Source of the DNA: an uncultured Planctomycetales bacterium
GTDB taxonomy: Bacteria; Omnitrophota; Gorgyraeia; Zapsychrales; Fredricksoniimonadaceae
Reading direction: 5' to 3'
Assembly: GCA_964583975.1 (NCBI GenBank)
Contig: CAZOXU010000003.1
Location: forward strand, 92,153-156,152
Length of the DNA: 64,000 nt
The notes under the pieces are model-generated. The model saw only the letters and a program-made list of their open reading frames with translations. It made no database searches and was not told the DNA's origin. A program made the translations under genes and the position numbers. Each line of letters begins with the position of its first letter. Within the stretch, counting starts at the first letter, position 1. Positions 21,001 through 51,000 of this stretch are shown in pieces.

Positions 21001-24000
21001 AATTCCCTGTTTGCCATCAAAGCTAACATAGCTATCACTTAAACTCTTGGCACGAACACCCGCCTTAATAAACATTAAATTAATAACGAGATTAAATTGA
21101 TCGTCACCACGATTATTTTGTTGAAGAGTGCTAGAAATAGTTTCTTTTAAATTTATCTGTCGACGCATATTTGTTCCTAAACGATTCACGACCGCAGCAA
21201 TTTCTACGACAGCGGCTTTGATCATCACGCCTTCAACAGCTGGTATTAACTCGCCCAACAAATCTGCAACCGCTTTAAATTGTTCCACACTATCAGCTGC
21301 TTTAATATATCCGACGGTGCTATAAACAAACTCAGTGGTTTTGGGGAAACCAGCTTTGGCTGCGCTTGTTTTAATTTGCTCAATAAGCTGAGGATTGGTT
21401 GGTTCAAAAACAACGACAATGCCGCCATTGTTTTCCATTAATTTAAGCTCAACAATCTTCAATTCAATGGTTCCAACGCCGTTTAAAAATCCTGCTTGAA
21501 TAACACTTGAATACGCAGCATCTACATCCTTTTGTGTAACTCCTGCTGGCAAATTCTTACCCACCGCTAAGGATGAATGAATTCTATGCAATGGCATTAA
21601 GGCCAAATTAGCCTCAGGAAGAATTGCTCGTAATCTTTCCTGGATATTCTTAATGATGCCGTGTAGGGATGTTTGTCTGATAGCTAACTCTAAGCTGACA
21701 TTGCTATAAACAACTCCCTGGGCAGGGTTTTGATAAACATAATAATTCTTTTCTAAGCGTTGATTGAGTTCTTCTAAAGCCTGTTTCTGGGCCAAATGCT
21801 CCGCAGTTTTAGCTGCCTTTTCTTGTTCTGCTAACCTTGCTTCTTGCTCTTGAGCTAATCGTAATGCTTCTGCTGCCACACGGGCTGCCTCGGCCTGTGC
21901 TTCAGCTATTTGCTTTGCTTCTTGTTCTTGGGCTAACCGCACTGCCTCTGCCTGGCGGGCTGCTTGTTCTTGGACTAAGCGTAATGCTTCTGCTGCTAAA
22001 CGTGCTTCCTCTGCTTGGCGGGCTGCATTTATTTCCTTTGAAATCTTAGCGTTTATTAAATCAGCCATACGTTGTCGTACAGCTATTAATCTGTCTGCTT
22101 CATACTGTTGTTTACGAACTTCTTCCTCTGCTGCTCGTTCTTCGGCTAGACGCTTTGCTTCTTCTTGAGCAATTTTTGCAGCTTCAATTCTTTCAGAAAT
22201 TCTTGCGGCTAATTCTGCTGCCTCGCGAGCTGCTTGTTCTTCTGCTGCCTTCTGTGCTGCTAATCTTAAAGCTTCAGCCTTTGCTGCTTCTTCTTGAGCA
22301 ATTCGTTGCTCTTCAACTTCACGTGCCAAACGGGCTACTTCTGCCTCTTGTGCTGCTTTTTGCGCTGCTTCTGCTGCCTCGCGAGCTGCTTGCTCAGCTA
22401 GGCGCTTTGCTTCTTGCTCTTGGGCTAATCGCACTGCCTCTGCTGCTGCTTCTGCCTCGCGTGCTGCTTGTTCTTGAGCTAAACGTAATGTTTCTGCTTC
22501 TTGTGCGATTCGTGCTTCTTCTGCTGTTAATCGTTCTTGTTCTGCTTGTGCAATTCTTAATGCTTCAACTCTTGCAGCTTCTTCGCGGGCTGCTTGTTCT
22601 TCAGCAACGCGTCGAGCTTCCTGTTCCCGAGCCAGAGCTGCTGCTTCTTGAACTTTACGTAAATCTTCTTGTTCCTGGGCTAATCGTAATGCTTCTGCTG
22701 CAGCTACTTGTTCTAATCTTGCTGCTTCGACAGTTGAATCAGAAGTAAATCGAGGTAATCGGGCTCCAATTCCTGGTTGAATATCTGTTATCTCTGGAAC
22801 AAAAACAGTTTGGTCAACCCCAGCAGCAGCTCCCTCGTTACCTGTTTGGGGTGGAATCACAGATCCACTAGCTGCTGCAGGGGTTGATCCTGCTGATGGG
22901 GCAGGGTTTAAATTGATGCGTGTGGCTAATGCAATTTCTTGTTCAGAAGGAGGAATAACACGAATACTGTCATCCTGAGGCGAAGCCAAAGGATCTATTT
23001 TAGATTCTTCGCTTTGCTCAGAATGACCATCTGAAATGAGATCACTTAATTTAACACGGGTGGCTATTGAACGTTCTTGAGCAGTAGGATTATCAGTTTT
23101 TTCTTGGACTATAGGGCCAGCACGAATACTTGGAGTACCTTGAACTTGACGTGATTTTAAGAATTTAATGACCAACCAGAATAAAAGACCAACGCTCGTA
23201 AGACCTAAAACAACCAGCATAACTATATAAAGTGTATTAGGACCAACAGCAGGTTTAACATCGTTGCCTGGTAAGCTTGTAGGTGTTGTGGGAACGTTGG
23301 TGGATCCTTTAACGGGTTTAGCTGTCTCATCAGTTTTTTGACCTTTGCTGAAAGCTGCTTTCATTTGGCCAAAGACTTTCTTCACTGTGCCATCTTCCTT
23401 CATCCATCCCCACTGACCTTCTCTGGCATCGCCAGCGGCTTTGCGGCTATTGTCTTGTAAAGACATAAATACAATGCTTACCTTCATCTCTTGTGCGACG
23501 TTCCAATCATTTTGAACCAATTGAGCTTGAACTTCTTCGCTATTAATAGAAGCTTCACCTGCTTCAGCAATATAAAATGGCTTACGGACACCAACCACTT
23601 GAATCGCTTCTTCAACATCAGCCTTCAAAGAAGCATTATGACGATAATAGTTAACGCCAATCGCATCGATGTTGGTCTTTATGGCTTCTGCTAATTCCGT
23701 AACAAATCTGATACGAGTATTGTTTCCTTGGATATCACGTGAGGTGTCGCCTAATACGGTTGTGACAGTTACATCAGCACCCACCTGGGTATGGATAGCA
23801 CGAGCAGCGGCATCGATAACGGTAAATAATTCGCTCATAGGGCGTCCGCTCCAGGCTGGGAAATTGCCATCGAAATTTGGTTCGTTCATAATTTCCACAA
23901 CGAGCTTGGCTCGGTTTTCAAGAGCAGCCTTGATGGTGCGAACATATTCCACATAGTTATTAGCGGCTAATGAAATTCGGGCACCCTCTGTTGGAACAAC

Positions 24001-27000
24001 ATCTCCGAAGAAACTGCTTAAACCATTTGCTTCATAAGCTTTATTATCTAAAGGAAGACCGACAATCACGGTGTTGACTGCGCTATTGTTAACTAATTCA
24101 ACAGCCAAGTCAGCTGGCATTGGGTAATAGGTGCGGATGGCTGTGACACCAAGTTCTTTAACAGCTTGAATATTGGCAGATGAAAAGTTTTGAGCATCAA
24201 CGGTAACGCCGAAGAATGGTTGATCATTGAATGCAGCTACGGCCGTTGTTTTAGCAGGAGCTTGTTCAACCTGAGCCACGGTTGGATTGACCTGTGTCTT
24301 AGCTTCACGAATTTCTTTAACCTTCACAGAGTCAACGGTCAAGATTGCAGTCATTAATAACATGACGCTTACTTTAGCCACTCCCTTAAGGGTGATCTTC
24401 TTGACTTGATTAACGCTAGATTTTACGGATTGCTTTATGACTTCCTTAATGATGAGTTCACGGAAAAATGCTGCAATATCTTTCACGTTCCAGCCAATGG
24501 CTCGGAAGACTTTATGGAAGGCAAATGGAACACTCAGTAGTGTAATTACTCCAAAGATCTGGCTGATCATTAATGAAGCAAATACTAATGAATTGATCAA
24601 CAATACGGTACTTGCCACTCCAAATATAATGATTGCTGTTTTATTACCAAACATTTCGCGAATAGACATGCCTGAGATTTCAAATTCACCAGTGATCTTA
24701 GATTTTCGGCTAATTGGCTTAAAGACATTCTTACCGTTTAAGAAAGCAATGGCAGCCAAGGGGTAGATTAAGGTTACGACTGGTCCTAATGGTGAAGCTA
24801 CAAATAAGGTGGAAATCCAACCTGATAAACCAAGAATAGCAATCGAGCCTTCATAAGGAATTGGCTTATTGTAGTTTGTAATCTTGGCTAAACCTTTTAA
24901 GACAATGGCCAAACCAATAACAATTGGAGCCACTACAAACCATGTGAATATTGTGAATGTAGCAGTTAAATAAACACCCCAAGCAATGGTTGCTAAACCT
25001 ACAACAATCATCAATTTTCCTAAGAAGATAGCCGCCTTGGTACGTGTAATCTTAACTGATAACATTCCACTTTCAGTATGCTTACGGCGATCATCCCATT
25101 GACCCAACAAGGCATCTTTGACAGTTGCAATGAAACGGAAGGATTCGTTAGAAGCCAAGGTGAAACCTTTATCAAAACTTGGAATCAAACCAACATACAT
25201 CGCAAAACCTTTATATGTTTCATAAGCAGATTTAGCTAAGGCACTCCAGATGCTTCCTGTTATTCTTAAATTGCGAACCACGTTACTGATGTTGATTGCT
25301 TGCATCAATAGGGTGCTGAGGGTTGCAAAAATGATTAAAGGCATTAAATAAGCAAAGGCACTGAACATCGACAAAATTGGCAAGCTAACTAAGAGAATTA
25401 AAGCAGCACGGGCTGAAAGATAATGCAAATATAAAGCAATATTGCTTAACTTCATATCATAGCCAATATTTTTATTAACTATTAATTCAAAAACACCTCT
25501 AAAGGTTAAAAATCCTGTGACGTTAAATGAATAACGTTGTTCTGTAGCATAAATAGATTCTGCAAATAAAGATGGTCGGCCCCATTCAAAAGCCATCCAA
25601 TCTACTTGGGTAGATACAACTTTTGGATAGGTGCGCATCATCATCATAAAGGCAGCAGAATCTTCTCCTGTTGGCGTCATTAAGGTGTCTGCTGCAGCTG
25701 GGGTAATCAAACCTTTACCATAGAAGGTGGTCAATCCACGACGTCCACGTTGAACTTCAGAGGTAAATGTTTCTTGAGCTACAGAATAGAGTTTTGTGAC
25801 TGGGAAGGCCCAATTAGAAGCAGCCCAGATTTTCATCATGGGGTTTACAACCATAATTTCAGGATTACGTCCAACCAAGGTAGCCCAAGCCAAACGGTAC
25901 ATATTTTGACCTGGGTAGATACGTACGTGAGCGTCATAGTTGGCAGAACGGCCATAGGTCAACCAAAGATTTCCACCAATACCACCGTTTTTATTCATCG
26001 GTATTGGGTTATCATTAGCCTTATCGTAGAATGGTAAATAAACATCTGCTTTTCGAGTGGTTATAATTACCTTAGAAATTGCTATAAGTGAATTGAAACT
26101 GTTGATGAAAGTTACTATTGGGCTATTAGCATCTACCGCTTCTTTCTTATTTTTCTCGATTTCTTTACGTTTTTGCTCATCTTTCTCAATCTTAATTAAA
26201 TTATCAAGCTCCTCAGTTTTTGAATCTATTGCTCTTCGTGCTTGAACATAAACTTCATATAAAAATACATAGTTTCTCTTTCGAATTTCCAAGATTTTCT
26301 CTGAAAATTCAACCAAGGATTCACCTTCGAGCGGAATTGCTGCAAACAATTGTTGTAATCTAGCAATATCCTCTCTATTCAGGCCTGAGAAATGTTTATT
26401 CAAGAATTCATCTGGGATCTTAGCTGTTATTTTCTTTAAAACATCAAAGATGAAAACATCTTCCCCATTAACGCGCTTTCTACTGACATGGTTACCCCAA
26501 ATAGAAGCTTCTTGGAAGGTTGGACGATATTTCAAAAGTACAATTTTCTTATATTCAGGATATTTGGCGGTAAATTCATTGTTAACACCTTTTTGTACGG
26601 CATCACGGTAAGCTTCTTCCAATGAGCTATAAGTACGGGCATATCCGCGAACTAAGCTTACGTAATTCATATCAGCATTTTGACGAGCTGCAAAGATATG
26701 CATTTCGACAATATCTCTTGCTTCACTCTCAACAACTGCTCCATTGTTTTGACGCATTTCATTGAGGAATGCTTCTAAGACTTCTATGATTTCGTAAGCA
26801 TTGTCTTTAGCTCCATTGTCAATAATGACCTTCATGAAATCTGTGTTTTCAGTGGCATTCTTTAAAGCAGCAACCACTTGTGGGAATCTAGCTTCAACCT
26901 TTTCTAGCGCAGCTAAGAACTCTGCACGATTATGGCGAACTACATATCCTAACAAGCTAGTCTTTTGACCATTGGCTTGATCATGGAAAGAACCAGCTCT

Positions 27001-30000
27001 TGATTCTGTTTCAAACAAGTGGGTAAAGAGTTCCCCGGCACTTTGCACATGAGTTGCCGTAGCTTGCATTAACGCAAACACATCGGTTACAGGTTTCTTC
27101 TGGCTTAAGGTATAGAAGGCCATATATAAGATCTCATTGGCCTTAGCAAATTTCTTAGACACCTTGTATCGGTTATTTGTTGGATCAATGATAAATTTAA
27201 TTAAATCCTCACGTGTATCTTTGTTGATCAGGTTTAATCTGAACAATTCAGCTATGACAGTCTCCAAATACTCTTGAACTGGTTCACCATTTGGTGTGAT
27301 AACACCATGTTGCTTTTCAACATTAATAAACTCTTGTAACCATTTTTGGAAGAAGGTCTGTGCATTGACTTGTCTTAAACGAACAATGGCCTTAGGTCCA
27401 ATTAAAGAATGGAATGTTCGGCTCCATGTGCTATTAGCTAATTGGATATAGCTTAAAATAGCATTGGCTGCATGGAAGGTAGATAATAAGGTTGGTAAAG
27501 CCATGAGCACAAATAAGCTTATTGTGGCAAAGAACCCAAAAGTCGCTGGCTGCAGAATGGAGAATTTCCAGAAAATATGATGAGCAATCCAGCCGAATTG
27601 ATAAATAGAAGCTATACCATAAACAATCATCCAGAAAGGTCTTTCACGTAATTGTTTGACCTTACCAAAGATCATGGCTGGCCATCCTAAAGATAAGACA
27701 ACGGTGATTAATCCAGGAGCAACCAAGCGGCTTGTGATCAATAAATAAATGCCTGTTGTTAAGCCTGCAGCCATGGTGAGCAAGGCTAAGGCAACTCTTA
27801 CACCCTTCATACCCCAGAAGCCACGAACCATAAAGGCCATTGGAACAATGATTCTGACAATCCAAAGATTTGAACGGCCGCGCCAATGTTTCAATAAATT
27901 ATCTGCTCCTAAAGCATAGAATGATTTTTCCTTGGCTAATTGTTTGGTGCGGTCAATTAAAGGTTGAGTGAATTTAATGACGCTTCTAGCAAATTCTAAA
28001 AGTCCGGCATATTTTGCATTTTTGTCTGCATCTGTGGCAGCATTGAATTCTGCAACCTTAGATTTATATGTTTTCCAAACGTTTTCTTGGAAGTAGTTAT
28101 TCACTGCCACATAACGTTCTTGGTGGGTAGTGGCCCCTGTAAGGTTATTGGCAGCATATAATTGTTCAACAATTTCTTCAAATCCATGGCGAGCTTGTGA
28201 ATCTCCTTTTTGGCTTAAACGATCAAATAAATCAATAATATCGGTATCTTTAAAGATTTCTGGTGTTCTGAAGCTAGGTTGGTATGGTCGAGTGGCGCTT
28301 TCTGTTATCAATTTAAATAAGCCTGGAGCGCTTGCATTACCATACCATTGATTGATTTGGAACATGGTAGTCCAGAATGATGCATGAACCTTCATACGAT
28401 CCAAGGCGGCAACGGCATTTTCGTTTTCTAATACATGAAGAACATCGCGAGCTACAAAGAAGGCCAATGGATACATGGTTGCAATTGCCCCCATTGAATG
28501 GCTTTGGGTGTCTGAAGGAGCCATTTGAATGAAGCGAATCATGATAAATTCACGTACGGTCTTGGCTTCTACAATTGGAGCAACTGGATATGGGTTTGCA
28601 ACAATCTTGGTTTTATCAGCTTCTGCTCCATTTAATTGATTAATGTTCAAGGCAAAGAAGGTGAAAAGGTCTGAAATGATGGTGTTAAACACATCTTCCT
28701 TACGATCTGCTGGGATCTTAACCCCTGTTGTACCAAATAATTGATCAAACAAGCTGTTGAACATTGAACGCACAACGGATTCTTTAAGTAATTCTGTGAT
28801 AAAGGCACGTAAGGTCTTGATCTTGCTTTGAGCTAAATAGTCAGCTGCCTTTTGAGCTACGATTGTTTCGCTGTCGACTCCAAAGTATCGGCTGTTAAGT
28901 AGTTGTCGTAAGATACGGGCTTCTGGGGTTGGCAACAGGCGATTAATATTTGAGAAGTCTCCAAATGCTATTTGGTTTAATACTTCATTTTCTACATCCA
29001 CTAAAGCCTTACGAACCATTTCATCTTGAGCGATCATACCCTCTGCTGGATTTAAGGCGATACCAAGCGCTTGAGCAACTAATCTTAAGCCTTCGTTTGT
29101 CTTGGTGCGAGGATCAACGTTTTCATCAGCAAATACGATCTTTCGAGATTTAAATGCATTAACTATATTTACGATCTCATCGGCAGTGAAATACTCTAAG
29201 CTATTAAGGTAATTCTTTAAGGATTCTAATTTTTGATCTTCGGAATCATATTTAGCGCCAAGCACTAAGTTTCCATTGAGTTTTTGGATAACGACTAACT
29301 TCTCTGCTTCGATTTCGCTTAATCCTGCACGCTTAATTAAACGTTTAACTGAAGCTGTATTAGCATTGGTCTTAGATAAGACGTTTTTAATAGATACGAC
29401 TATTCTGCTGCCTCGGATCCAAGGATACATTAATAAAGCTACCAAAAGGCTTAAACCATAGAAGACCAAAGAAACGATTTGATCAACAGCAGCATGATTC
29501 TTCAAGAATGGAACATCGAACATGGCTCCCAAACGATAGAATTTACGTAAACCTTCGACAAACAATGGTTTTGTTGGTGCAAGGATTGTCATTTGAACAC
29601 GATTATCTGGGCTTAAAATTTGATGGTAGATTTCAATCGCATCTTCCTTGTTTGCTGAGAAGTCAAAGGTGTTTACTGTTCTTCCAGCAGGACTATTGCG
29701 GAATTTATCAGCAAATGTTGAATCTATGACATCCATACGAATCTTATTTCCATTTTCAATGGTCGCAAATGGATAACCGTTGGTTTGAGAAACTTCAACC
29801 CTGAAGATACGATCCATTGGGTCAGATACAGCTGTTGTAGAAACGATATTTTCTTTATTTAAAAGGTAATAGTAGTTACCGATTTTCTTGTAGTAAGTAT
29901 CAAATTTGCTATAAAGATACTCTTCAGTTAATGTCTTTTTATTATTGAGGGCTTCCATCACATCAGCTTTAATCATTGGGATACGGTTAATTTGCAATGG

Positions 30001-33000
30001 AAGACTGTCGCGGCTGTAGATCTTGTATTCTTCGTTGATATAGTGTTCCCAAACCACGCTGGTGTTGTAGTTATAGCCGATAATCACATCTGGGTTAACA
30101 ACTTCTCTGCCATCGCGATATTCATAGGTGACATTGTATAAATATTCAAATTTCTCACGATCTGGAGCGCGGTAAACTGTTTCGCGAAGTTTGCGTCCGC
30201 TCTTAAGATCGAAGGATGCCTCCCCTGCTGAAATACCTACAGGGATATGAAGATTATCAGTGTCACCGAATTTCATGAGTCGGATGGCGCCACGGTCAAT
30301 CTTCACATAATCACGGGCTAAAGGATCATCTTCTCCAAGGTATCGGGTCAACACATCTGGGGTACGTTGACCATTGATCATTACGGAACGTTTGATTTCA
30401 ACAAGTGTTGCTTGATTACCATAAGACAAGCCTCGAACAGCCTTCAGAGATGTTGTATCTTTGAACAATTCCTTAATTAAATCAGTGGTTGCAACTCTTC
30501 GAACAGTTTCTAATTCATACGCAAGGCCATTAGCAGAGTATTCAAAAGCAAGTTTAGGATCTTTTTGTCCATCCCATTTGGTATTAACAATTAAATCAGC
30601 AGCTGCAACATTGGTGGTATTGATAAAGGCGATGATACGAGCTAATGGATCTTCATTCATACGATAGAAGTATACGGTGCCGTCGTTGGTGTACTCTACG
30701 CGTGAACGTGTGAATGTGGCTTTAGTAATATCAGCGATACCGATCTCAGAAGCGATATTACGTATAGCTGTTTCAATATTTGTTTTAATTTGTTCTCCAT
30801 GGATACCCTTGACATTTTCAGAAATCAATTTCAAGATGGATTCTTGCAATTGAACACTGTTGAGTGTCTTGTTTTCGATATAGGCTCGAATAACATTTTC
30901 CAATTTAACGAAGTTGCCGTTTCTTAATTGATATAAGCTTGTGTCACGAGAAACTGGGCCAACTTCTTCGGTGATACGATTTTCAACTAAAGATAATCCA
31001 TTGTTTTCTGGTAAAGAATCGATTTGGCCAATGAGTTTCTGACGTTGCAAATCAATAATGAATGAACGAACAACTTTGCCTGCGACAATTTCTTGGGCAA
31101 TTCCAGCTTCAGCAACATTGTCTAATTTGATACTTAGCTCTGGTGCTCTTCTAGCCTCACCAACCGTAACTTCTCCCAAAGTGTAGATGCCATTGATATT
31201 CGTAAATTCGTACATTGGTCGGGTAATAGCATCAACGTATCCAACTAAGGCCTTACCCTTGCTTGGAGCACCATTAGCAAATTCTGTAGCAAAGAACTCT
31301 ACATAAACTTGACCAAAAGTGCTTCTGACTTCTTCGTTAGCACCAGCAACTGGTGCAACAATTGCAAAAGCTTTTTGATAAGCACCTGTCATATCACGAC
31401 GTTCAATAACTTGAACCGCTTTACCATCTATGGTGACTAATAAATTCTTAGCTGTTGCTGTTGCCACTTGAACATCAGGACCTGTAAACTTAGCAATGGT
31501 TTCTTCTGTAGTAGAAGTCACTGTGCCAATTTCAGCATCTTCTTTAGAAGGTGTCATGTAAATACGGCCAACTGTTTCTAATTTATACTTGGTTTCATCA
31601 TCTTGTTTATACTCAACTAGTCGCCCTTTAAGGGCCATGCTTTGGAGAGCTGCCTTACGGATAGCTTCATAGTTATCATTGATTTCTTTTAAGGTTGCAA
31701 ATTCAGCGGTCATATCAGCTTCAGTTTTGGCCTTATTGATAATCAAATAATTTTCATTAAGTTTGGCCTCAATTTCATTGCTGTTCCACAATTCAAATCT
31801 ACTGTTATAACGCTTAACCCATCGTCCAGCTGTTTGGGCAACTTCTTGACCTTCTTTATTGGTAATGGTCTTAATATCTAACTTAACGACTTCGCGAGCC
31901 TTGGTTAAAATGGTTCTGGTTATTTGTGGATCATTCATTTGATCAACTGCAATGAATTCAGCTGTTCCATCATTCCAAACAATCAAAGCATGCTTATCAT
32001 ATTTATTAACGATTTCAGTTTTCAACCATAATTCAAATCCACCTTGATACATCTTCACATATCGTCCTTTAGCCTCACCCTTCATATCTAAGCCTTGAAC
32101 TTCTTGGGCTTGGGTCATAATCAAATCTTGGTTAGCTTTAAGTTGGCTGACAGCCACAAACTCTGTGTTCTTATCTTTCCAAACGACTAAAGTATTGTTT
32201 TGCAAGAAAGCTTCAACTGTTGTTTCTACTTGAACACCATTGATGATCTTTGTAGGTCTAGCTTCTTTGAGAATTACCGTTCTCTTAACACCCTCTGGTT
32301 GACCTTCAACTTGAACCATTTGAGTTTGATTATCAGCCATACGTTTAACCAGTTCGCTTTCGCTATGTACACCTACTCTTACTTGTTCTGCGCTTGCTTC
32401 CCCTTTAGCATAGATTTCAATCTTGCCTGTAATTTGATTTTCTACTTCAATGCCACCGTTTAACAAGACGTTTAATTGAATCAATCGATTTTCTAATGTT
32501 TCAAGACCAGGCTCGAAGATAGCAACTACTTTTCCTTCTTCTACTTTAACCATGACATCAGATTTGAGATTCTTAATAGATGTACGCTGTGTACGAATAA
32601 CTGTATAAGTTGATCCTTCTTTGACTACGTTCGTAGCTTTCACAAACTTAATTGGATTGATACCTTGAAGATCTTCGGCAGCCACTGGCATACGGCCATC
32701 GATGTAGTAAATGACGCCTAAACCATCACGTCCTTGGGTTACTTGAGCTGTAAGTGCATCGCCAGCTAAGAAGATTTGACCATCTTCTGTGACCCAAGCT
32801 TTGCTGGTCACTGTGGTTTCTGTGACTGTGCCTGACACTGTTTCTGGGTTGGCAGCATGTTGAATAAAGTCTGCTAAGCTTGCAGGAATATGGTTGAAAT
32901 CGGTCTTAGGATACATACCTAAAGCCAACATGTTTGGTACTGGACGGCGATCACCAAAGATAGAGGTAATATTAAAGATGCTTTGATCAAATTCATTAGC

Positions 33001-42000: not shown

Positions 42001-45000
42001 GGCTAAAAGAATGCTCAATCCTTTGATCTGATCGCTTGAAAGTTGTAATTTCTTAACTTGTGGGACATTAGGTGTTGGTGTCTCGGGCAGTGCTGTTACA
42101 ACTGGAGATGCTTGAACAGCAGGAGCATTAACTACCTTGTCATCCGACAAATTAGCAGTCTGATTTGAAAGTTTTGAAGCTTCACGAGCGACTTCTGGCA
42201 CTGTCTTAATCTTTAACTCTGTACCTTTATCTACTAAGGCAATAAACTTTTCTGTTCTTTCTTGGGCTTCTTTAGCTCCAAAGATCACTGTCGCTCTAGA
42301 ATAAATATGTTGATACAATTTGTTCTTTTCAGCTGGTGTTAATGGTTCTCCAGAAATTAACTTTGCATTCCATGTGGCTCTGGAACCTACCTGCTTGGCA
42401 TATTTATAACTCTTTAAAATATCTGCAGCTTCAGAGGTTTTGCCTTGATTGATAGCATCTTTAAACCTGGTTAACTTTTTAGCTCTACCTTCACCCATGT
42501 TGTAGACCAAATCGCTAAGGGCTATTTTTTGAGCTGGTGTAAGAGTAGAAATGGCTTTAGGATCCCACACACGTACTTCGTGAGGAGAACTATCTTCCAA
42601 TCGATCAGTGATAATTTCTTCGCCCTGTGAAACAAGCATGGGGATGCCTTCTTTAGAATACTGAGGAATCAATTTTCCGGTAAATCCAAAGCCTACAGTC
42701 CATACGCCTGTGGTGCCATCATCATTGCGTCCAACCTTATCCAAATACATCAAGGCCCTCCATCCTTCATGGATTTCAGTCCAGGTCCTTAAATTAAATA
42801 ACGTGTCCTCGTCGATGGCAAACTGTGGAGTCGCGATCTTGGTTTCAATGCTAGCTTGGGTCTGTGGCTTTTCTTGGGCTGCAAGTTGACTGCCAAATCC
42901 AAAACCACCCACACTGATAGCTAAGGCCGTCATCCAGCCCTTCAAGCGTGGCGCGCTCATGGCGGCGTCGGTCACTTGATATTGAGTTTGAGGAACTTTA
43001 AGCTCTTTAACATTGCTGGTTGGATTTACAGCAAAGCTGCTCACATAAGACCAGAACTCAGGTAAAACTTCTCCATTAGCATCATGAATATCATGGTCAT
43101 CTCTATAGAAGAAGATTAATTGACTCTTATTATCATCTCTTAAACCATACAGGAATTTTCCATTAGGCATTCGAAGAACCCTTACCTTTGCACCTGTGGT
43201 TCTCTTACCGTTAACAGCAGAAAATTCTTTTGTTGGTTTGACCAATAATTGATTAATTGCTTTAATAAATTCTTGTTTATCCTTTTGAATAGCAGATACG
43301 TGTTTCTGATCATCCCCGTAAGCCCACACCGTGTAATTCTTGCCCGATTCATTTTGAACAGTTAGAGGCTTTTCAACGATTACCTTTGAAACCCTTTGTT
43401 TTAAAGTGTCAATAAGAACAGCCTCAGAGTTTTGCAAGTTATCTTCAGGCACGGCACCACCAATAAGACCTAATATATGCCCTGCATAAACCTGACGATC
43501 AAAATCGGCAGAAATTCCTGTTAAGGTTTCGACTAACTCATCCACTGTATTTTGAACACTCACATCGACAGGTTGATTTGGATTCTTTCCTAATTTTTCT
43601 CTCAAAATATTCAATACATCTTTTTCGCTGATCAATGCATCTTCCAAATCAATAGCTGCATGAATAATATCTTCTAAGAGAACATCGTTATGTCCACGCA
43701 AGGCAACCTTCTGCTGGATCTCTTTAGGAGCTACATTTAATAACAATGGCTGAACGCTATAGTTCCAAATCTTTTCAACCAAATCTCGCTGAGCTTTTTG
43801 TCGAAGTCTTGGCTCTTTGATCGATGAGAAATATTTCTGACCGTCAATATTATCTGCAATGCGTTCAATGGTAGGAGTTCTCTTAGCTTTTAATAAACCA
43901 AAGAATGAGGTTAGAACATCTTTTTCAATGGCTTGCCATTGAACATTTGGATTCTCTACGATTGCCTCAGTGAAATTCTCTTGTGTTTGAGAATCGGCAA
44001 AGGCTTGAGCACGGAAATCGACTAGTTTTGCAAAATATCCAGCATCTTTTAATTTAATGAAATCAGTTTGTACCGCTGCCAATTGAAGGGTCGGAAGTTG
44101 AGTCAGAGATTTAGCGCTATCGATGGTTGTCTTCAATTTGGCGAAACTGTTTTGTTTCTCTTGGGCAAAACGAATCTGTTCGGATATTAGTCTGTTTAAA
44201 GCAGTTATATCTTCATATTTATCATTTCTATGGAGACTGTTGCCTTCGGCATGCAACAGCCTTAATTGTCGGATAACGTCCTCAAGTGTCTTTGTCTGTT
44301 TAGGATCTCTGATGCTTCTATAGATAGATTGAATGGTTTCTGGTACTTTTCCATCCAGAGCCGTAAATTCTTTTCGAGGAATATCGAATGTATAGCCTTC
44401 AATGGATCTTCTTGTACTCATCGCAGCATCGGTCTTTGCTGTCATAGCAGGATCAGATAAACCTAATTCTATATTGCTAAGGTCTTTAGCTAAATCTTTA
44501 ATATCGTTTTGAACATATCCATAACGACCTAAGCCACTTTTCTCCCATGGTAAGCCAGCTGGAGTTGAAAGACCTGTTGGACTCTCAAACAATGAACCGG
44601 CCACATTGGCTTCATCTTTAAATTTATTCCAATTAGAATCGTTGGCATTTAAAACTTGTTCGATGTCTTGGGCAGACAAAGATGTAAGACGGGTCATTTC
44701 TTCAATGCTCATTTGAGAAGGCTCAAGCCCAACAGCCACACGCATCAAAGCCTTATACGCTTGAACATTATCGATCTTGTCTCGATTCTCAGGCTTCAAT
44801 TCACGAACAGCTTGATCTTTAGCAACTTGAATAAAACCTTTAACTAAATTCTGCACTTGAACTGCGCGCTTAGGAGTGGAGGACATGGCATAATCAAGTT
44901 GGGTTTCATCAAAATTAGCAAGATTACTTAAGAATGGTGTAACGATGTTTTCTCTAATGAAATTTTCTTTTCCTATTTGTGTATTCTTATAGGTTGTAAT

Positions 45001-48000
45001 CAGTCCTGTTGAATAACGGAAAATGTCATAAGCTAAATCTTCCACCGATTTATTTTGAACATACTCTCTAACATCTTTGAAGAATTCTAGCGCTTTATCT
45101 CGTCCTAAGGTTTTAGCAATCGTTTCAAAGATAAACCGATCTTGTTGATCTTTATATCCGTAAGCTAATATGACATTAGCCAAGAAGAAGAATTTACCTC
45201 TTTGAGCATACGTTTTAGCTTGATCTCCCTTATCCTTATAATAACCTGGCTCGAGGAAGAATCGTTTGTTGCCTAAATCAATAATGACAACATTACCTGT
45301 TTTTTCTTGATAAATAAAATTATCCAAATGGAAATCTGATGGAATTCTTCCCTTTAAAGCTTGCCCAACTTTAACCAAGGCTTCAACTGTCTTTCGACGG
45401 ATTTCGGTAGTAAGTTTTCCTTGTTTATTTAATTCGCTTAACTGAGGCCCTTTAATAAATTCTTCCAAATATAATATTTGTCCTTCGTCTGTTGTAAATG
45501 TTGGGCCTAAAGCTGGAGCAATCTCAGAATGTTTCTTACCAATCTTTTGCATATCACCAATTTCCATAGGATCAATGCTGCCCTTAGCTTTTGCGCTCTT
45601 ACTCACCAAGGCCACTTGGCGAGAACCGCCATCACGAGTTTCAAAGTCCACTAAGAACACATCTTTATTGCTTCCTGAAGCCAGATAGCTAATTGATATT
45701 TTCTTTGTTAAATCAGCAGCTTGAATATTTTCCCTTGTTAATTGGCTTAACATCTGGGCCACAACTTCATCCGTATTGTTTTTGTCTAACAAATAATTTT
45801 GTAGAATGGTTCCTGTATTAACAAATTGCTTAGTGAAGCTCTGTGCGTCTGCGGCTAAGGTTGGAAGATTCATCATGACACGACTTTCAATCTTCCAGGT
45901 ATCATGGACTGGACGTAAAGGTCCTGACATCGCAGCGTCGGATGGATTTGAATTAAATGTTGTTAGGAGGCTTGGCAATACTGCAGATGCATCTGGAGCG
46001 GATGTCCTTACACGAGGTGTAACAATTCCTGCAGCCTGTGGTGGTGATTGACCTCCAATGCCAAAGGCAACCTTTAAGGCATTTGTCAGTGCAACAGCGG
46101 CACTTCCAGTGTTTGCTGTTAAATTAGACGGCTCGACTTGATCTTGATCGATAATCATGGCACTATCAGAACCTTCATCTTTAGGTACGCTCGCTTGTTT
46201 TGCTGTTGCTTCTTGAATAATACTAAAAAATTGACCAATACTGACCTTGCTGACCTGAGCGACCTTGCCTGACTCTGTCACAACATTCTCAAAACCTAAT
46301 TTCTTAAGATTATCTTCTGTTCCATGGATGGTGAGGGTTTCTTCAATCGCATTATTATCATCAACACTACCAATTAACTCGACCTTATCTAATCCTAACT
46401 GGGCTAATCCTGGAACCTGATTGGAAACATCAGATTGATAATGACCCTCGCTAACGGCTATTACCTTTCCTCTTACAATGGCACGAACCTTGCCATTGGC
46501 ATCTTGAATCAACTTGGTCGTTGGATTTAACGTATACTTTTGTTCACTGATAAGTTCAGGAATGTTAACGCCTACAGGAATCGTAAATTCAACATGTCCT
46601 GGATTAATCTCTCCAGTTGCTGTCACATGATTAATTTGTTGGCCAGAAACGCTGACTTCTTTACCCTCATTATCTTGGCCACGAAGAAGATTAGAAATAT
46701 CTACGCTATAGCGGTCTTTTTCGACAGGAGTGATTTTATTGTTCACATAAATAGCAATGGGTCTGTCTGTTCTTACAATAACAGCATGTCCTTGTTCTTC
46801 GTTAATGATAAGTCTGTCTCCATCCAAAACTTCAAAGCTTCCAAGATTTTGTTTCTGGAACACTAATTGTTTTCCTATGATCCTTCCTGTTTTTACATCT
46901 AACGTAGTGACCTCTTTCAACAGAGCATTGATGGTTTTATCATCAACAGTTATTTTTCTTGGAGCATCTATGGCAATGTATGGCGCAGCTGGGTTAGAGT
47001 AATCAATTTTGTAGTTCTTGCCCTCCATGCGAATATCTGTTGGCGTGTGGCCTGTTGCAAAACTTTCGTCTTTAGCAAATATGAAGGCGTCGCTTGGAAT
47101 ATAATTGGAAAGCACTGGTGTAGATTCTTCTTCGATTTCTCGGCCTCGATTTTTAGAACGCACCTCTTTCTCAACTTCAGAAAATGTCTTTGTGCTAGCC
47201 AAAACATCTGTAAACAAGCCGCCCTCTTCTTTCGTGGTTTTGTAACTCTCAAAACCTTCCTTTAGCTTCAATAAATTGGCTTGAATTGTTCTTAACTCAG
47301 CTTCGTGTTCTCGAGCAAAAGAGACCATATTCGAATTGCCGCTCTTAGCAAGAAACGCAAAGACAACGTTCAAATCACTAAAATAAGCATCGAACTCCGT
47401 GTCTGCAAGATCTTGGTCAAAGACATCGTACTCTTTATGCATGGCTAATAAATCTCGAATGAATCTCTGCACCGGTTGAGACAAGCTTTCTCTATAAGTA
47501 CGAACGGTTCTAGGATAAGCTCCAGTGCCATCGCCTAAGAAAAATCCATGGATCGTTTCATGTCTTTCCATTTGCTGTTGGTGTTCATCTGAAGATAGTC
47601 TTTCAAGGGTTTTATCTTGTGGGATGACAATCACAGCTGCCTGACGAAGTTTGCTATAAACACGACCTTCTTTTTTAACAACCCCTCGCTGTTCTAATTC
47701 TTTAAGTAGGGCTTTTTCCCAAGGATTAAGGTTGTTCTCTCCCACGTTATTAACAAAATCAACGACCTTATCAATACTCCAATCATGTCCCACCTTAGGA
47801 CTTACGCCTACTCTAGCAAATGCCTCTTCATCCAAAACCTTACCCCTAAGGTCAGGATGTTCGGCAAAGACAGTCAAGCGTTGACCAAAACGATCAGCAG
47901 TAGCCATGTTAGCTGTTTTGATTTTTATAGTGTTATCTTGTTCGCTAACGCTGAATGATCTAGGATTCTCTGGTGGCAACAACTTACGCATTTGAGCGAC

Positions 48001-51000
48001 CTTACGTTCAAAAGTCGTATGAGCATCTAATTTCGCAAATTGGCTGTTGAGGGTTTTAATGGTTTGACGCTGTTCGTTAAGCAAATCTTGAGCAATTTTA
48101 AGATCAGCTTGATGCTGTTGAATTGGATTTAAACCATAATTTTTCTTAGCATTGCCCAACCATTTTAGGGCGCTTTGAAGATCACTGTTGGCAGCGACCA
48201 TTTTCTTTTGGAGTACCTGACGTTGGGTCAAGACCTGTAATATCTCTTGGGCTTTACTTAAGCTCTCTGTAGCAGGAAATCCAAGTTCAGCAATTAACTT
48301 AGATAAATCCTCTGTCATTCCTTCTTGTTGTTGTGGATCAACGCTTAAGAATCGAGAAGATAAATCTACAATATTATCTGCGACCGTATAACCTGTAGGG
48401 CTATTTTGCATCAACACTCTGTCGTTAATAGCTAAATGTCCGATTAATTGTCGTGCAATTTCTACTACTTCTTTGGAAGGTTGATCAATGCGTTGTGTCT
48501 TACCTATAAAGGCTTGGCGAGTGCGAGCGACAAGATTAGAAGCCATTTGTAAGTCTTCTTGATCGCTTCCTTGTTTCCCTGTGTTCAGGCGAGCTTCTTT
48601 GCGCAAACTAGCTAAAATTCTTAACAACTCATCCGGTGGAGCCTGCGATGGTGTTAATTCAATCATCTTTTGCACAACCTTCTGAATTGTGTCTGCACCT
48701 GCATTGTACATTTCAGGTTTAAGAGCATCGGCTACTAATTTAGGAATGATTGTATCGGTAGACACTTTGAATGTTTGCAAATGATATTCTTGCGCCCCTT
48801 TGAGTTCAGCTTTCTTATTACCTACAGCTTGGAAACCTAAGGTCTTATACAAATCTTTAGCCGTTTGATCTTCATCAGGAGCTTGTAAAACAATGTTCTT
48901 AAACTCAAATTTCTTGGCTTGGCTTGAAATAATGTTCATTAATAATGCTCCCAAATCTACACCCTGTACTGCTTGGCCAATACCTACATGAGAAATTTGA
49001 ATATCTCCGTTAGCTTGAGGTCGAGCGCTCACGTAAGCGAGTACCTTACCTTGAGCATCGATAACAGCATGTGTCAAAGAAGGAGTTTTCTTGATCAGAT
49101 CTTCGGAAGCTTGTCGGCTAACAGCTTGACCATTGACCTTATTCTCTAGACTTGCAATACCTTCAATGGCGTTATCATCCTTAGAATTAACTAATTTAAC
49201 TCTCATCCCCTCTGGCAGGGTAGCATTGATATTTTGTAGCTGTTCACTCCAAGAGCGTCCTTGATAGGCCATCATCATTTGTGGACTTGCTGCCCATTGT
49301 TGATATTGAGACTTTTGGGTTTTTTCTTCGATTCTTCCATCATCAAAGTAGGCAATCTTGACATGGTCTTCGACCGTACTTCTGACCTTGGCATAAACTT
49401 TAAATGCTTGAGAAATCTCTGTTGGCTTCTTCAATTCCCATGTCTTGGCTTGATCATTCCACTTCAAAGATCCTGGATTGGTATTGGAGTTAATGACAAT
49501 TTCATTGTCTCGAATGGTAATGCCTTGGGCTGCTCCTAAGATATTAACAACCCCAGCAAACTCACTGTCAGCCACATCTTCTCCTGCCTTTAAATGATCA
49601 GCAAAGTGATCTGCGGCTTTCCAAGCTGTTTCACTAAATGGAGCATTTTTAACAACCAGGCTTAACAAGGTTGTACGGCGGGCTAAGCTTTCTGACACGA
49701 TTTGTGATTCTTGAAGTGTTTTAGTAAGCCACTTCTTTATTTCAGCGTCTTTCTTAACAGCAATGTCTTCTGGAACATGGTGTTCAAATGAACTCTTTTC
49801 ATCACCAGCAGCGATGGTAAATTGAACCTTACTGACCTTACCGTCTTTGTCTCGGACCAATTTAAAATCATCATTATTTATGATCTTGGCACCGGCCGCA
49901 AAGTTAAAGCTGGCTCGCTGGGCAAAATCAATCATACGATCTGTCATATCAGAAATGGCTGAAGCTTGACGACCTGCTTCTTTCGTATCTCCGCTGTTAT
50001 AAGCCTCGATCATTAAATGTCGTTTGCCTTTAAAGACATACTCAGGAAGGGCCTTTTTCGCTTCTTTAAGGAAGGATCGGAATTTATCTCCCATGAGAGA
50101 ATCGATGTGTTCTGGTAATTTTGGCTCGCCTCGTTCATCGAAATCAGCACCATAGATTTCAAAATGATGGGCAATATTCTCTTCAACGGTATACTGCTCA
50201 TGGTAAATGTGCTCAGCCACGCTAGCTAATGGATTGGCAGCTAAATTATCGTTATGGATACGTACTTGGGCAAATTTACCAGCTGTCCCTTCACGGACAA
50301 GCTTCTTCATCCATTCGTGGACCAATTCATGGATGAACACACCAGATTCAGAAGCTTGAGAAACGCCGCGCAAGAACGAAAGACCGAGATTAGATCCTAA
50401 CAAGAAATGCTTGTCAGTTGACATAGCCGCAGTGCCCGCATCATCCAAAGCGAGATTCAAAACCAAGTCTTTGCCAAATTGCTTTTTAATAAAGTCGGTT
50501 TGTCGGCCAATTAAACTGTCTTTATCATCGCTAACAACCTTAATACCATAAGAAACAGCATCTTTAAGTGGAGCTTTAACATCTTCATTTGTAACTTCAT
50601 GGCCTCTATCTAACGCGACAATCGTGATCCTGGCTTTATCGTCTAAACGAGCCATGTTTCGGGCAACCTTTTGGACCGTATCAAAGCTTCCGCCAGCAAC
50701 TGCCACAGCTTCTTGGTAGGCATGTCGAGTATCTTCCATGTTCTCATGGTAGATCTTAAACCCTTCATTCATTCGCTGTTTCTGGATTAAAATTCGATCT
50801 GCTTGATCACTAATATGATCGCTGGTTAATCCCATGCTTTTAAATACCGACTTGATTGGATCATCCTTGCCAACAACGTAATGATCTCCTTCTTCAAAAT
50901 AAGCTGTATCGTTCCAGAATTTACCTATTCTAACACCATCTTTATCGACAAGCTCTCCATTAGCTATGTCGATACTGGTTACGCCCTTAGCTTTCAACTC

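Follow-up and report, generated by a model that had tools for sequence, protein, structure and literature searches.

A 64-kb window probably internal to a giant, membrane-threaded multi-enzyme gene of the Omnitrophota lineage

The window analysed here, which comprises 64,000 nucleotides of contig CAZOXU010000003.1 (positions 92,153 to 156,152), is occupied on its minus strand by one giant reading frame. This frame runs through 21,333 codons with no stop and is open at both ends of the window. With 63,999 nt, it exceeds the criterion of >20 kb that has been applied to giant genes (Seymour et al. 2023). A sequence-only reading of the same DNA had described a membrane-anchored, multi-enzyme cell-envelope-degrading protein between positions 23450 and 50600. 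All the motifs that it quoted are indeed present in one and the same frame of 21,333 codons. The limits that it gave are loose, since the motifs SGGKT and DEIH and five of the seven HExxH motifs fall outside them and the gene extends beyond both sides. Here, we followed up this reading with profile, homology and fold searches. Based on these, the window is best described as an internal 64-kb slice of a giant, membrane-threaded multi-enzyme gene from an ultra-small bacterium of the Omnitrophota lineage, a reading to which we give, together with the model of export and wall cutting discussed below, a probability of about 0.6.

The giant reading frame

In the following, amino acid residue (aa) i is codon i of the minus-strand frame, which occupies window base 63999-3(i-1) and the bases downwards from it.

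1..63999, minus strand: slice of the giant frame, 21,333 codons, with the N-terminus and the C-terminus beyond the window
19699-19701, 19684-19686, 1492-1494 and 1045-1047, minus strand: cysteine codons, two of the four within the first phosphomannose isomerase (PMI) domain, PMI-1

While the giant frame has no stop, its coding strand has 2,106 and 1,492 of them in the two remaining frames. The giant frame is the sole long open frame under genetic code table 11 and under most of the other codes tried; the standard bacterial code keeps it open, and recoding is unnecessary. An open frame of 21,333 codons cannot arise by chance. The protein is nearly devoid of cysteine, with 4 residues among 21,333 (0.02%), and TGY codons number 4 in the giant frame versus 1,261 and 470 in the other two. 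The same avoidance is seen family-wide: the homologues described below, and the large open reading frames (ORFs) that neighbour one of them, L003, have a cysteine content of 0-0.26%. Extreme avoidance of cysteine is commoner in exported and surface proteins, and its near absence fits a polypeptide that is translocated, externally exposed, or both. Cysteine avoidance does not appear in the main texts of Seymour et al. 2023, West-Roberts et al. 2023 and Nielsen & Lui 2026.

The only other ORF of at least 150 aa in the window is a 197-aa frame with a TTG start at 22155-22748 on the plus strand, antisense to the giant frame and most likely spurious, as it has no supporting evidence. Searches of the 64-kb window for RNA families with Rfam and for tandem DNA repeats with Tandem Repeats Finder were both negative.

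The core cassette and its relatives

Relatives of the giant protein are few. When aa 3200-4399 were searched exhaustively with HMMER among 1.84 billion representative proteins, only 18 clusters emerged, most of them fragments. Those that are named, MEI8011293.1 and MBF0595832.1, are partial hypothetical proteins from metagenome-assembled genomes (MAGs) of Candidatus Omnitrophota/Omnitrophica; the former has 5,340 aa and occupies an entire 16-kb contig. Another homologue, P0004, is a 7,335-aa JGI protein with an N-terminal Peptidase_C39 domain (E=6e-8). Among the GTDB species representatives, the sole relative is L003 (DYOU01000019.1), from a MAG labelled Ca. Elulimicrobium sp. Its ORF (86-16225) has at least 5,379 aa and matches aa 2665-4896 with a tblastn identity of 34.8% over 2,385 columns and 1,134 bits. 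Finally, an ENA contig, L001 (ERZ25039501 contig_45139, 1-18500), aligns colinearly with aa ~150-4918, the identity being 28-37%. Altogether, the colinear alignments with the relatives have identities of 28-45%.

These alignments define a core cassette of about 2,400 aa, which is composed, from its N-terminal side, of a coiled-coil-like lead-in, a SecA-like motor, a β-rich region, a region with a conserved HE(x)xxH motif, and a GNAT domain. This cassette is the conserved unit of a small family.

48745..56007, minus strand (aa ~2665-5085): core cassette, delimited by tblastn against L003, BLASTP maps of the homologues P0001-P0018 and the colinear L001
52510..54327, minus strand (aa 3225-3830): SecA-like DEAD motor, a superfamily 2 (SF2) ATPase with two RecA lobes and an insertion, recognised by conserved motifs and a fold search
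49840..50562, minus strand (aa 4480-4720): conserved His/Glu region, with 'FIHELVHEW' (HExxH at aa 4557) and, downstream, 'EENIAHHFE'
48811..49125, minus strand (aa 4959-5063): GNAT acetyltransferase domain, recognised by Pfam, NCBIfam and conservation in homologues

The GNAT-like fold proposed earlier is well supported. Two Pfam models score over their cutoffs, Acetyltransf_10 (PF13673) with 25.4 bits (cutoff 23.6) and Acetyltransf_1 (PF00583) with 24.8 bits (cutoff 20.7), and NCBIfam gives a rimI-like match (E=1.8e-7). The domain is kept in homologue P0007 (E=1e-8). The His/Glu region had no Pfam match. In a family alignment of six members, its motif is HExxH in four, while P0003 and P0004 have HExxxH. 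The region may be a metal site rather than a verified zincin.

In L003, the homologous frame ends about 380 aa past the position equivalent to GNAT. It is followed on the same strand by large cysteine-poor ORFs (15922-18492 and 18616-21966) with no similarity to the window. This arrangement suggests that the giants grow by fusion of a core cassette with other modules, and it renders the label of the lineage ambiguous. Downstream of the cassette, no relative was detected for the lysozyme, the GH-A-like loop, the zincins, the PMI domains or the transmembrane (TM) helices. As for L001, its homologous giant gene is spread over successive ORFs of one strand that abut or overlap, and the similarity changes frame among them, e.g. 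from 2 to 1 at ~13771-13783. These jumps are most likely indel errors of long-read assembly, which split giant ORFs in public protein sets.

The only relatives thus being fragments from Omnitrophota MAGs and one from Ca. Elulimicrobium, and the architecture fitting the published descriptions, the proposed likeness to the giants of Omnitrophota stands. On the basis of these homologues, the lineage would be Omnitrophota or a close neighbour.

The SecA-like motor

The motor has a Walker A motif 'MSGGKT' at aa 3256-3261 and a Walker B motif DEIHELVLSVPMITS that starts at aa 3359; SGGKT (aa 3257) and DEIH (aa 3359) correspond to window positions 53923-54231. Further motifs are 'GLNAFMRMI', 'TERNLHTQIT...GYTGTAE' (aa 3595-3623), 'SAGDSGVSP' and 'HYDFNMRG...QAMARGD'. 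In the family alignment, the conserved blocks are 'LSLAMSGGKTVME', 'DE[IVM]HE..LSVPMITS', 'RVYTD..GLNAFMKMII', 'TERNLHTQIT......GYTGTAE', 'SAGESGASP' and 'HYDFNMRG....QAMARxD'. We take their counterparts in SecA to be M-x-T-G-E-GKT, DEVDSILIDEARTPLIIS, GLHQAIEAKE, ...ITFQNYFRLY.KLAGMTGTA and the regions of motifs V and VI. The insertion presumably sits where SecA has its preprotein-binding domain.

An AlphaFold2 (AF2) model of the module, made with the family alignment, has a predicted local distance difference test (pLDDT) of 65 and a predicted template modelling score (pTM) of 0.41. With this model, Foldseek retrieved SF2 helicases that bear insertion domains, and SecA2. In addition, one family member matches Pfam ResIII, an SF2 family, with E=1.7e-5. 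The copy in the window had no match in Pfam, the families SecA_DEAD, SecA_PP_bind and SecA_SW included, and a 12-sequence profile of the module run against PDB sequences found neither SecA nor a helicase.

When compared with E. coli SecA (PDB 3bxz and 2fsf), the module shares 'G[MY]TGTA', the Walker A motif 'M-x-x-G-x-GKT' and the Walker B motif 'DE[VI][DH]...P[LM]I[IT]S', the last of these being followed by an insertion. It differs from SecA in that it lacks a profile match, in that the helical scaffold, wing and C-terminal domains of SecA were not detectable in the module, and in being part of a giant protein, at a depth of about 3,200 aa or more. The module could be described at best as a SecA-type motor and not as a SecA orthologue, as the motor core alone resembles SecA. 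The earlier assignment of a SecA/SF2-like ATPase is therefore upheld by the motifs conserved in the family and by the fold search, with no support from Pfam or PDB sequence profiles.

The lysozyme unit

41944..42939, minus strand (aa 7021-7352): lysozyme unit, from Pfam, PDB and reading of the sequence
42370-42777, minus strand (aa 7075-7210): GH24 lysozyme domain, Pfam Phage_lysozyme

The unit starts with an uncharged, weakly hydrophobic segment rich in Gly, Ala and Ser (aa 7021-7042). The GH24 domain follows. Downstream of it, Pro and Thr are abundant in a linker at aa ~7290-7315, after which another weakly hydrophobic segment (aa 7326-7341) leads to the cluster KKEAREKKK. The domain matches Phage_lysozyme (PF00959) with E=2e-9 and 38.3 bits (cutoff 22.3) over profile positions 3-111 of 125, and the match was reproduced in a repeat search. 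Phage lysozymes of the PDB, including the signal-anchor-release (SAR) endolysins R21 and RrrD, match with E=0.002-0.02, and BLASTP against the sequence of a P22-type lysozyme gave E=2e-6.

The motifs EIHEGWRAL (aa 7075), TVGFGF (aa 7101) and VYNMGEGR (aa 7165) lie at window positions ~42480-42777. T4- and P22-type lysozymes have the pattern EG-x-R-x3-Y-x-D followed by T-[IV]-G-x-G. In the window, the sequence 'HEGWRALMYLD...GVWTVGFGFT' gives E7078, D7087 and T7101, and eight residues are inserted between the Asp and the Thr. The first two residues were assigned by comparison with the known pattern 'EG.R...Y.D', while the Thr region was aligned to lysozymes of the PDB and of the P22 type. These matches support a GH24 lysozyme with a probably intact Glu/Asp/Thr motif, and the T4-lysozyme-like muramidase proposed earlier is supported at this level.

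The domain resembles the phage GH24 lysozymes and SAR endolysins (R21 of phage 21, PDB 3hde/3hdf; RrrD, 4zpu) in its catalytic motif and in a Phage_lysozyme score over the cutoff. With the SAR endolysins, it also shares the Gly/Ala/Ser-rich, uncharged and weakly hydrophobic segment upstream. However, the domain lies within a giant protein, whereas the phage proteins are of 15-20 kDa; the hydrophobic segment is about 35 aa from the catalytic Glu and not adjacent to it; a second segment comes after the domain; and the 8-residue Asp-Thr insertion is a further difference from phage GH24 lysozymes. The flanking segments may be membrane-spanning. Their resemblance to those of SAR endolysins is speculation.

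The membrane-threaded part

970..35544, minus strand (aa 9486-21010): membrane-threaded part, from Kyte-Doolittle scans with shuffle controls

TM segments were located by Kyte-Doolittle hydropathy in a 19-residue window (KD19), with thresholds of 2.0 and 1.6 and with shuffle controls. At KD19 of at least 2.0, there are 17 segments in aa 9493-21333, compared with 5.3 +/- 1.8 in shuffled sequences, so that the many transmembrane helices of the sequence-only reading are borne out, all of them C-terminal of aa 9493. At KD19 of at least 1.6, there are 33-35 segments in aa 9493-21010, i.e. about 15-18 weaker ones besides the 17 strong ones. The soluble loops between the hydrophobic segments have lengths of up to ~1,900 aa. 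Within aa 1-9492, no segment was found even at KD19 of at least 1.6 (shuffles 7.3 +/- 2.3), the maximum being 1.5. A full topology by the positive-inside rule was considered and dropped, there being too many ambiguous hydrophobic segments.

The first strong helix (aa 9493) is preceded by a linker of ~120 aa rich in Pro, Thr and Ala (aa 9026-9148, window 36556-36924), which coincides with a GC-rich stretch (GC 0.47 at 36-38 kb). Over a TM segment at aa ~16577-16626 (window 14122-14271), there is a weak NCBIfam match (E=0.002, 17 bits) to GspF, an inner-membrane protein of type II secretion. Loci resembling type II secretion systems have been described beside giant genes; the match is probably noise.

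The GH-A-like loop

23344..24216, minus strand (aa 13262-13552): GH5-like module, from a signature and a pattern of strands and helices

This module lies in a loop of ~371-376 aa between two TM segments, aa 13202-13220 and aa 13592-13610, with a Pro/Thr-rich linker after the module. The signature LVVEIMNEPN, on which a GH5 glycanase had been proposed, is present at aa 13366 (window 23875-23904). Its PROSITE-type pattern is matched once in the giant protein, and at least once in 75 of 3,000 shuffled sequences (2.5%). The candidate catalytic residues are N13372-E13373, in NEP, and E13479, which is 106 aa downstream in 'FYIAEAGE'. Read by eye, the segment of ~290 aa has eight alternations of a hydrophobic strand and an amphipathic helix, with NEP after the fourth strand and 'FYIAEAGE' after the seventh. 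In clan GH-A, NEP with the acid/base Glu is found after strand 4 and the nucleophile Glu after strand 7 of the (β/α)8 barrel.

The only Pfam family reported for the loop is PF00150, with 13.8 bits (cutoff 23.5) and E=0.042 over profile positions 101-140 of 272; it was not reported at E<=1 for a 2,500-aa tile that spans the loop. No match to the loop was found among PDB sequences at E<=10, among 5.8 billion proteins at E<=1, or among plasmids by tblastn. A single-sequence AF2 model has a pLDDT of 36 and is unusable. Membership in GH5 was therefore rejected, with a PF00150 match that is below threshold and limited to the motif and no homologue in the PDB or the databases. The module is like clan GH-A in its signature, in the distance to the candidate nucleophile, in its length and in its eight alternations. 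It is unlike it in that it is under the Pfam threshold with alignment of the motif region alone, is without PDB or database homologue, and has an unconfirmed fold. On balance, this sequence pattern makes it more probable that aa 13262-13552 are a glycosidase of the clan GH-A type than that they are not.

The lysozyme and the GH-A-like module have a common layout, which consists of a hydrophobic segment, the enzyme, a Pro/Thr linker, a second hydrophobic segment, and a Lys/Arg cluster, KKEAREKKK for the lysozyme and KFLKSR for the GH-A-like module.

Putative mini-zincins and phosphomannose-isomerase-like domains

The window contains seven HExxH motifs (aa 4557, 5480, 14525, 15090, 17776, 17964 and 18730), compared with 0.31 expected from composition. 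The last five, at window positions 7810-20427, belong to paralogous modules of two types, A and B. PMI-like domains lie in the same part of the protein.

20194..20703, minus strand (aa 14433-14602): mini-zincin type A, copy 1 ('LAHEADHIFGLSE'), 38-39% identical to aa 17677-17831 and 17871-18054
19300..20202, minus strand (aa ~14600-14900): PMI-1, class-I phosphomannose-isomerase-like cupin, from NCBIfam, Pfam and motifs
18541..19041, minus strand (aa 14987-15153): mini-zincin type B, copy 1 ('AEILEHELLHKLNPQ'), 36% identical to aa 18630-18797
9838..10971, minus strand (aa 17677-18054): tandem pair of mini-zincins type A ('LYHEIDHILGLSE' and 'MSHEIGHIVGLDE'), from Zincin_1 and self-comparison
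7609..8112, minus strand (aa 18630-18797): mini-zincin type B, copy 2 ('AEILEHEILHILNPQ'), from self-BLASTP and alignment
2320..2859, minus strand (aa ~20381-20560): PMI-2, second PMI-like domain, from Pfam, NCBIfam and motifs

The tandem pair of type A matches Pfam Zincin_1 (PF06262) in two stretches with E=2.8e-5 and 24.5 bits (cutoff 22.4), and Peptidase_M10 with E=1e-3. In an alignment of the five modules, HExxH is invariant in all of them despite identities of 24-39%. These data support the five paralogous C-terminal modules as putative mini-zincins, whose third metal ligand was not identified. The sequence-only reading had counted six HExxH zincins; the five modules are retained, while the count is seven, the motif at aa 4557, within its limits, is doubtful and that at aa 5480 is unsupported. 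Profile searches, which that reading had named as its check, thus sustain GH24 and, for the type-A pair, Zincin_1, and they fail to sustain GH5.

PMI-1 has the motifs 'LSIHVHP', 'GKEEAY' and 'GTVHSF'. It matches manA (TIGR00218) with E=3.7e-21 and 75.7 bits, against an equivalog cutoff of 116, and Pfam PMI_typeI_cat with 24.6 bits (cutoff 22). PMI-2 has the motifs 'LSLQLHP', 'KPELW' and 'GLVHAI', with matches to PMI_typeI_cat (E=3e-7, 31 bits, cutoff 22) and to NCBIfam manA (E=1e-9). Both carry QxH/HxH, E and H motifs of the metal-ligand type. Because the TIGR00218 score is under the equivalog cutoff, membership is at the level of the domain only. TM segments and zincin modules surround the two domains, which places a sugar-phosphate enzyme inside a supposedly envelope-degrading protein.

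Other features of the window

59770..63702, minus strand (aa ~100-1410): array of divergent repeats of ~270 aa, from self-BLASTP with 28-41% identity
56011..56433, minus strand (aa ~2523-2663): TPR repeats, Pfam TPR_19 E=8e-10, TPR_16 E=2e-9 and TPR_2 E=3e-8
47548..47562, minus strand (aa 5480-5484): isolated 'HETIH', a motif match alone
40444..40758, minus strand (aa 7748-7852): Walker-A-like 'GAGKST' (motif at aa 7757), whose identity as a nucleoside triphosphatase (NTPase) is unverified

The N-terminal repeat array has no match in Pfam or NCBIfam, and its region is common to L001, where it aligns with positions 1-2600. The repeats could be a counterpart of the antiparallel β-helix tubule regions that have been published. 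At aa ~1789-2195 (window ~57400-58650), there are four uncharged, Gly-rich and weakly hydrophobic stretches (KD 1.0-1.3), which align with a Gly/Ala-rich portion of P0003. They could be membrane segments of the glycine-zipper type that fall below the hydropathy threshold and, if so, they would alter the topology of the N-terminal part. The TPR region also has a PilW-like NCBIfam match (E=2e-6).

For 'HETIH' at aa 5480, Pfam gave nothing even at E<=10, and aa 4601-9600 had no homologues at E<=1e-5. The GAGKST region had been proposed as a P-loop NTPase. Its match to Pfam DEAD is below threshold (E=0.048, 13.8 bits), no PDB match was found, and hhalign did not relate it to the SecA-like module. 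From composition, we estimate that chance alone would supply about 1.7 matches to [AG]x4GK[ST] in a protein of 21,333 aa. We therefore rejected it as a demonstrated NTPase, nothing being found beyond a motif at chance level. The kinase-like fold fared no better: the motif [HY]xD[LIVM]KxxN is absent, and no kinase or APH family of Pfam was found at E<=1 across aa 4467-13600. A single match to HxDxxxxN ('HNDNLAAN', aa 4582) was considered and discarded, as it is not conserved in the relatives.

Comparison with known giant proteins

Giant ORFs have been found in most classes of Omnitrophota, with few annotated domains and poor conservation (Seymour et al. 2023). A set of genes of >90 kb, with proteins of up to 85,804 aa, was described by West-Roberts et al. 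2023 (10.1101/2023.11.21.568195). These proteins have TM helices, C39, TPR and HEAT domains, glycosyltransferases, glycoside hydrolases, peptidases, SLT, sugar-phosphate enzymes and GNAT, and their SecA DEAD domains are divergent, without the scaffold and wing domains (10.1101/2023.11.21.568195). The type example of the 'Archaeovorin' proteins is a 39,678-aa protein from Ca. Velamenicoccus archaeovorus LiM (10.1101/2023.11.21.568195). The giant protein of V. archaeovorus rises threefold in prey-attached cells, and it is on the proteomics of this organism that the link to predation in the literature rests. More recently, a catalogue of 916 long proteins was published, the longest with 147,155 aa; TM helices or a signal peptide occur in 94% of them and 80% are sequence singletons, with recurrent GNAT and SecA-DEAD groups (Nielsen & Lui 2026, 10.64898/2026.06.07.730766).

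The giant frame shares with the Archaeovorin type a single ORF of tens of kb, numerous TM helices, and a divergent SecA-DEAD-like motor without scaffold and wing. Also in common are TPR, GNAT, a murein-cleaving domain, peptidase-like modules, enzymes of sugar-phosphate metabolism, and a lengthy N-terminal portion in which no domains are recognised; homologue P0004 has an N-terminal C39 domain. It differs in that similarity to giants in the databases is limited to the core of ~2,400 aa (~4,800 aa in L001), in that its murein-cleaving domain is a phage-type GH24 and not one of the SLT lytic transglycosylases of the paper, and in that its SecA-like domain has diverged beyond recognition by Pfam PF07517. 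As in the multi-enzyme class of Nielsen & Lui, varied enzyme domains, with GNAT (PF00583) and SecA-DEAD among them, tile the polypeptide without a dominant repeat, the density of TM helices is of the order of ~2% of residues, and the sequence is a singleton. In contrast, the 21,333 aa of the window contain about 6 Pfam families, compared with 21-50 in giants of at least 80 kAA (thousand aa), and some ~15,000 residues are without annotation. HEAT repeats had no Pfam or NCBIfam match in the window.

The window could thus be described as a further, sequence-unique member of the described class of Omnitrophota giant proteins ('Archaeovorin'/multi-enzyme). Neither the phage-type GH24 lysozyme nor PMI is found in the main texts of Seymour 2023, West-Roberts 2023 and Nielsen & Lui 2026. 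We regard GH24, PMI and cysteine avoidance as minor new details and not as a new kind of system. That the order of domains may be undescribed, as had been proposed, is true in a trivial sense: giants of this sort are sequence singletons in about 80% of cases, and a new order is therefore no new kind of system.

Discussion

In the model that we propose, the giant protein would be anchored in the cytoplasmic membrane, and its built-in SecA-like ATPase, on the cytoplasmic side, would help to thread or export the protein's own extracytoplasmic segments. A role of the SecA-like domain in exporting the giant's own loops has also been suggested by West-Roberts et al. (10.1101/2023.11.21.568195). The lysozyme and the GH-A-like loops would be displayed outside the membrane, where they would cut glycan strands in the wall of a partner, of prey or of the cell itself. 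They are placed outside because of their shared layout of segments, linker and Lys/Arg cluster, read under the positive-inside rule. The modules that depend on ATP, acetyl-CoA and sugar phosphates would stay inside, with the cytoplasm-facing GNAT and PMI domains modifying or channelling sugars. A function in attacking cell walls is plausible but inferred, and the sequence does not tell whose wall would be the target, that of prey, of a host or of the cell's own.

Several observations weigh against this reading. The lineage comes solely from homologues of 33-45% identity, with neighbouring genes, rRNA and marker genes all absent from the window, and NCBI places Ca. Elulimicrobium in the Patescibacteria group. 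The window holds neither end of the gene, two-thirds or more of which may lie beyond it, and therefore does not give the total length, a signal peptide or C39 domain, or the absolute topology. The SF2 ATPase, GNAT, the lysozyme and GAGKST share a stretch without a strongly hydrophobic segment (maximum KD19 1.5), and an in-out-in hairpin at the lysozyme would depend on two weak segments, with KD of 1.24 and 1.33. None of the profile, homology and structure tests that were run supported the GH5-like module, and glycosyltransferase, methyltransferase and NUDIX domains had no Pfam or NCBIfam match in the window.

The protein could also be a membrane-anchored metabolic cluster or scaffold that faces mainly the cytoplasm (class 1 of Nielsen & Lui), its hydrolases remodelling the cell's own peptidoglycan during growth, division or insertion. 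We consider this unlikely. In its favour, PMI, GNAT and the ATPase motor need cytoplasmic substrates, no strongly hydrophobic segment separates the GNAT domain and the motor from the lysozyme, and domain scans of the window found no adhesin-type domains (dockerin, discoidin, laminin-G). Moreover, 46% of long Omnitrophota proteins have TM segments only, with the bulk predicted to be cytoplasmic, and peptidoglycan synthesis is reported to be intact in their genomes (10.64898/2026.06.07.730766). A cytoplasmic GH24 muramidase, however, would have no substrate there, and both hydrolase-like modules have the layout of exported loops, with hydrophobic brackets, Pro/Thr linkers and Lys/Arg on the far side. 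The threefold rise of the V. archaeovorus giant in prey-attached cells also argues against a scaffold, as does the extreme avoidance of cysteine, which is more typical of exported or surface proteins.

A polyprotein, cut into separate enzymes and membrane proteins by its own C39 or mini-zincin domains or by host proteases, seems to us improbable, and it would be compatible with export and wall cutting. If it were one, to speak of a single machine would mislead. Five conserved HExxH modules are dispersed beside other domains in the C-terminal part, homologue P0004 has an N-terminal C39 peptidase, and the Ca. Elulimicrobium cassette, closed by a stop ~380 aa past the GNAT-equivalent position, is able to act as a separate product. 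Cleavage by C39 or S8 has been raised as a possibility by West-Roberts et al. (10.1101/2023.11.21.568195). Against it, no cleavage sites or repeated motifs of a linker plus a site were identified. That the window is an artefact, produced by chimeric assembly, by a repeat joined wrongly or by non-coding sequence with chance motifs, is hardly credible. Some motifs are indeed at chance level (Walker A and the GH5 signature), two pieces of at most 5,000 aa have no detectable homologue, and an exact 40-mer of the window was absent from the public genome and metagenome contig collections searched; but the frame is free of stops over its whole length while the other frames have thousands, its avoidance of Cys codons is specific to it, protein homology is colinear over >2,000 aa with independent assemblies, several domains are above threshold, and there are no tandem DNA repeats that could cause mis-joins.

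Within the preferred reading of an exported, wall-cutting giant, a bolder version can be put forward as a long shot. The protein would be a self-exporting 'threaded assembly line', in which the divergent SecA-type motor translocates the protein's own enzyme loops and every wall-cutting enzyme is displayed as a cassette of hydrophobic segment, enzyme, Pro/Thr linker and hydrophobic segment, and SAR-like flanks hold the muramidase inactive in the membrane and release it on contact with a partner. If true, a phage lysis trick would have been domesticated within a cysteine-free bacterial giant protein.

The giant genes of Omnitrophota are recognised but functionally unexplained, and the window refines the current picture of them while it leaves that picture unchanged. 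It offers small, delimited modules for expression, namely GH24 (aa ~7060-7215), the GH-A-like loop (aa 13262-13552), a SecA-like motor of ~600 aa and mini-zincins of ~150 aa. In addition, the core cassette, which in a relative ends as a separate ORF, hints at the growth of giants by fusion.

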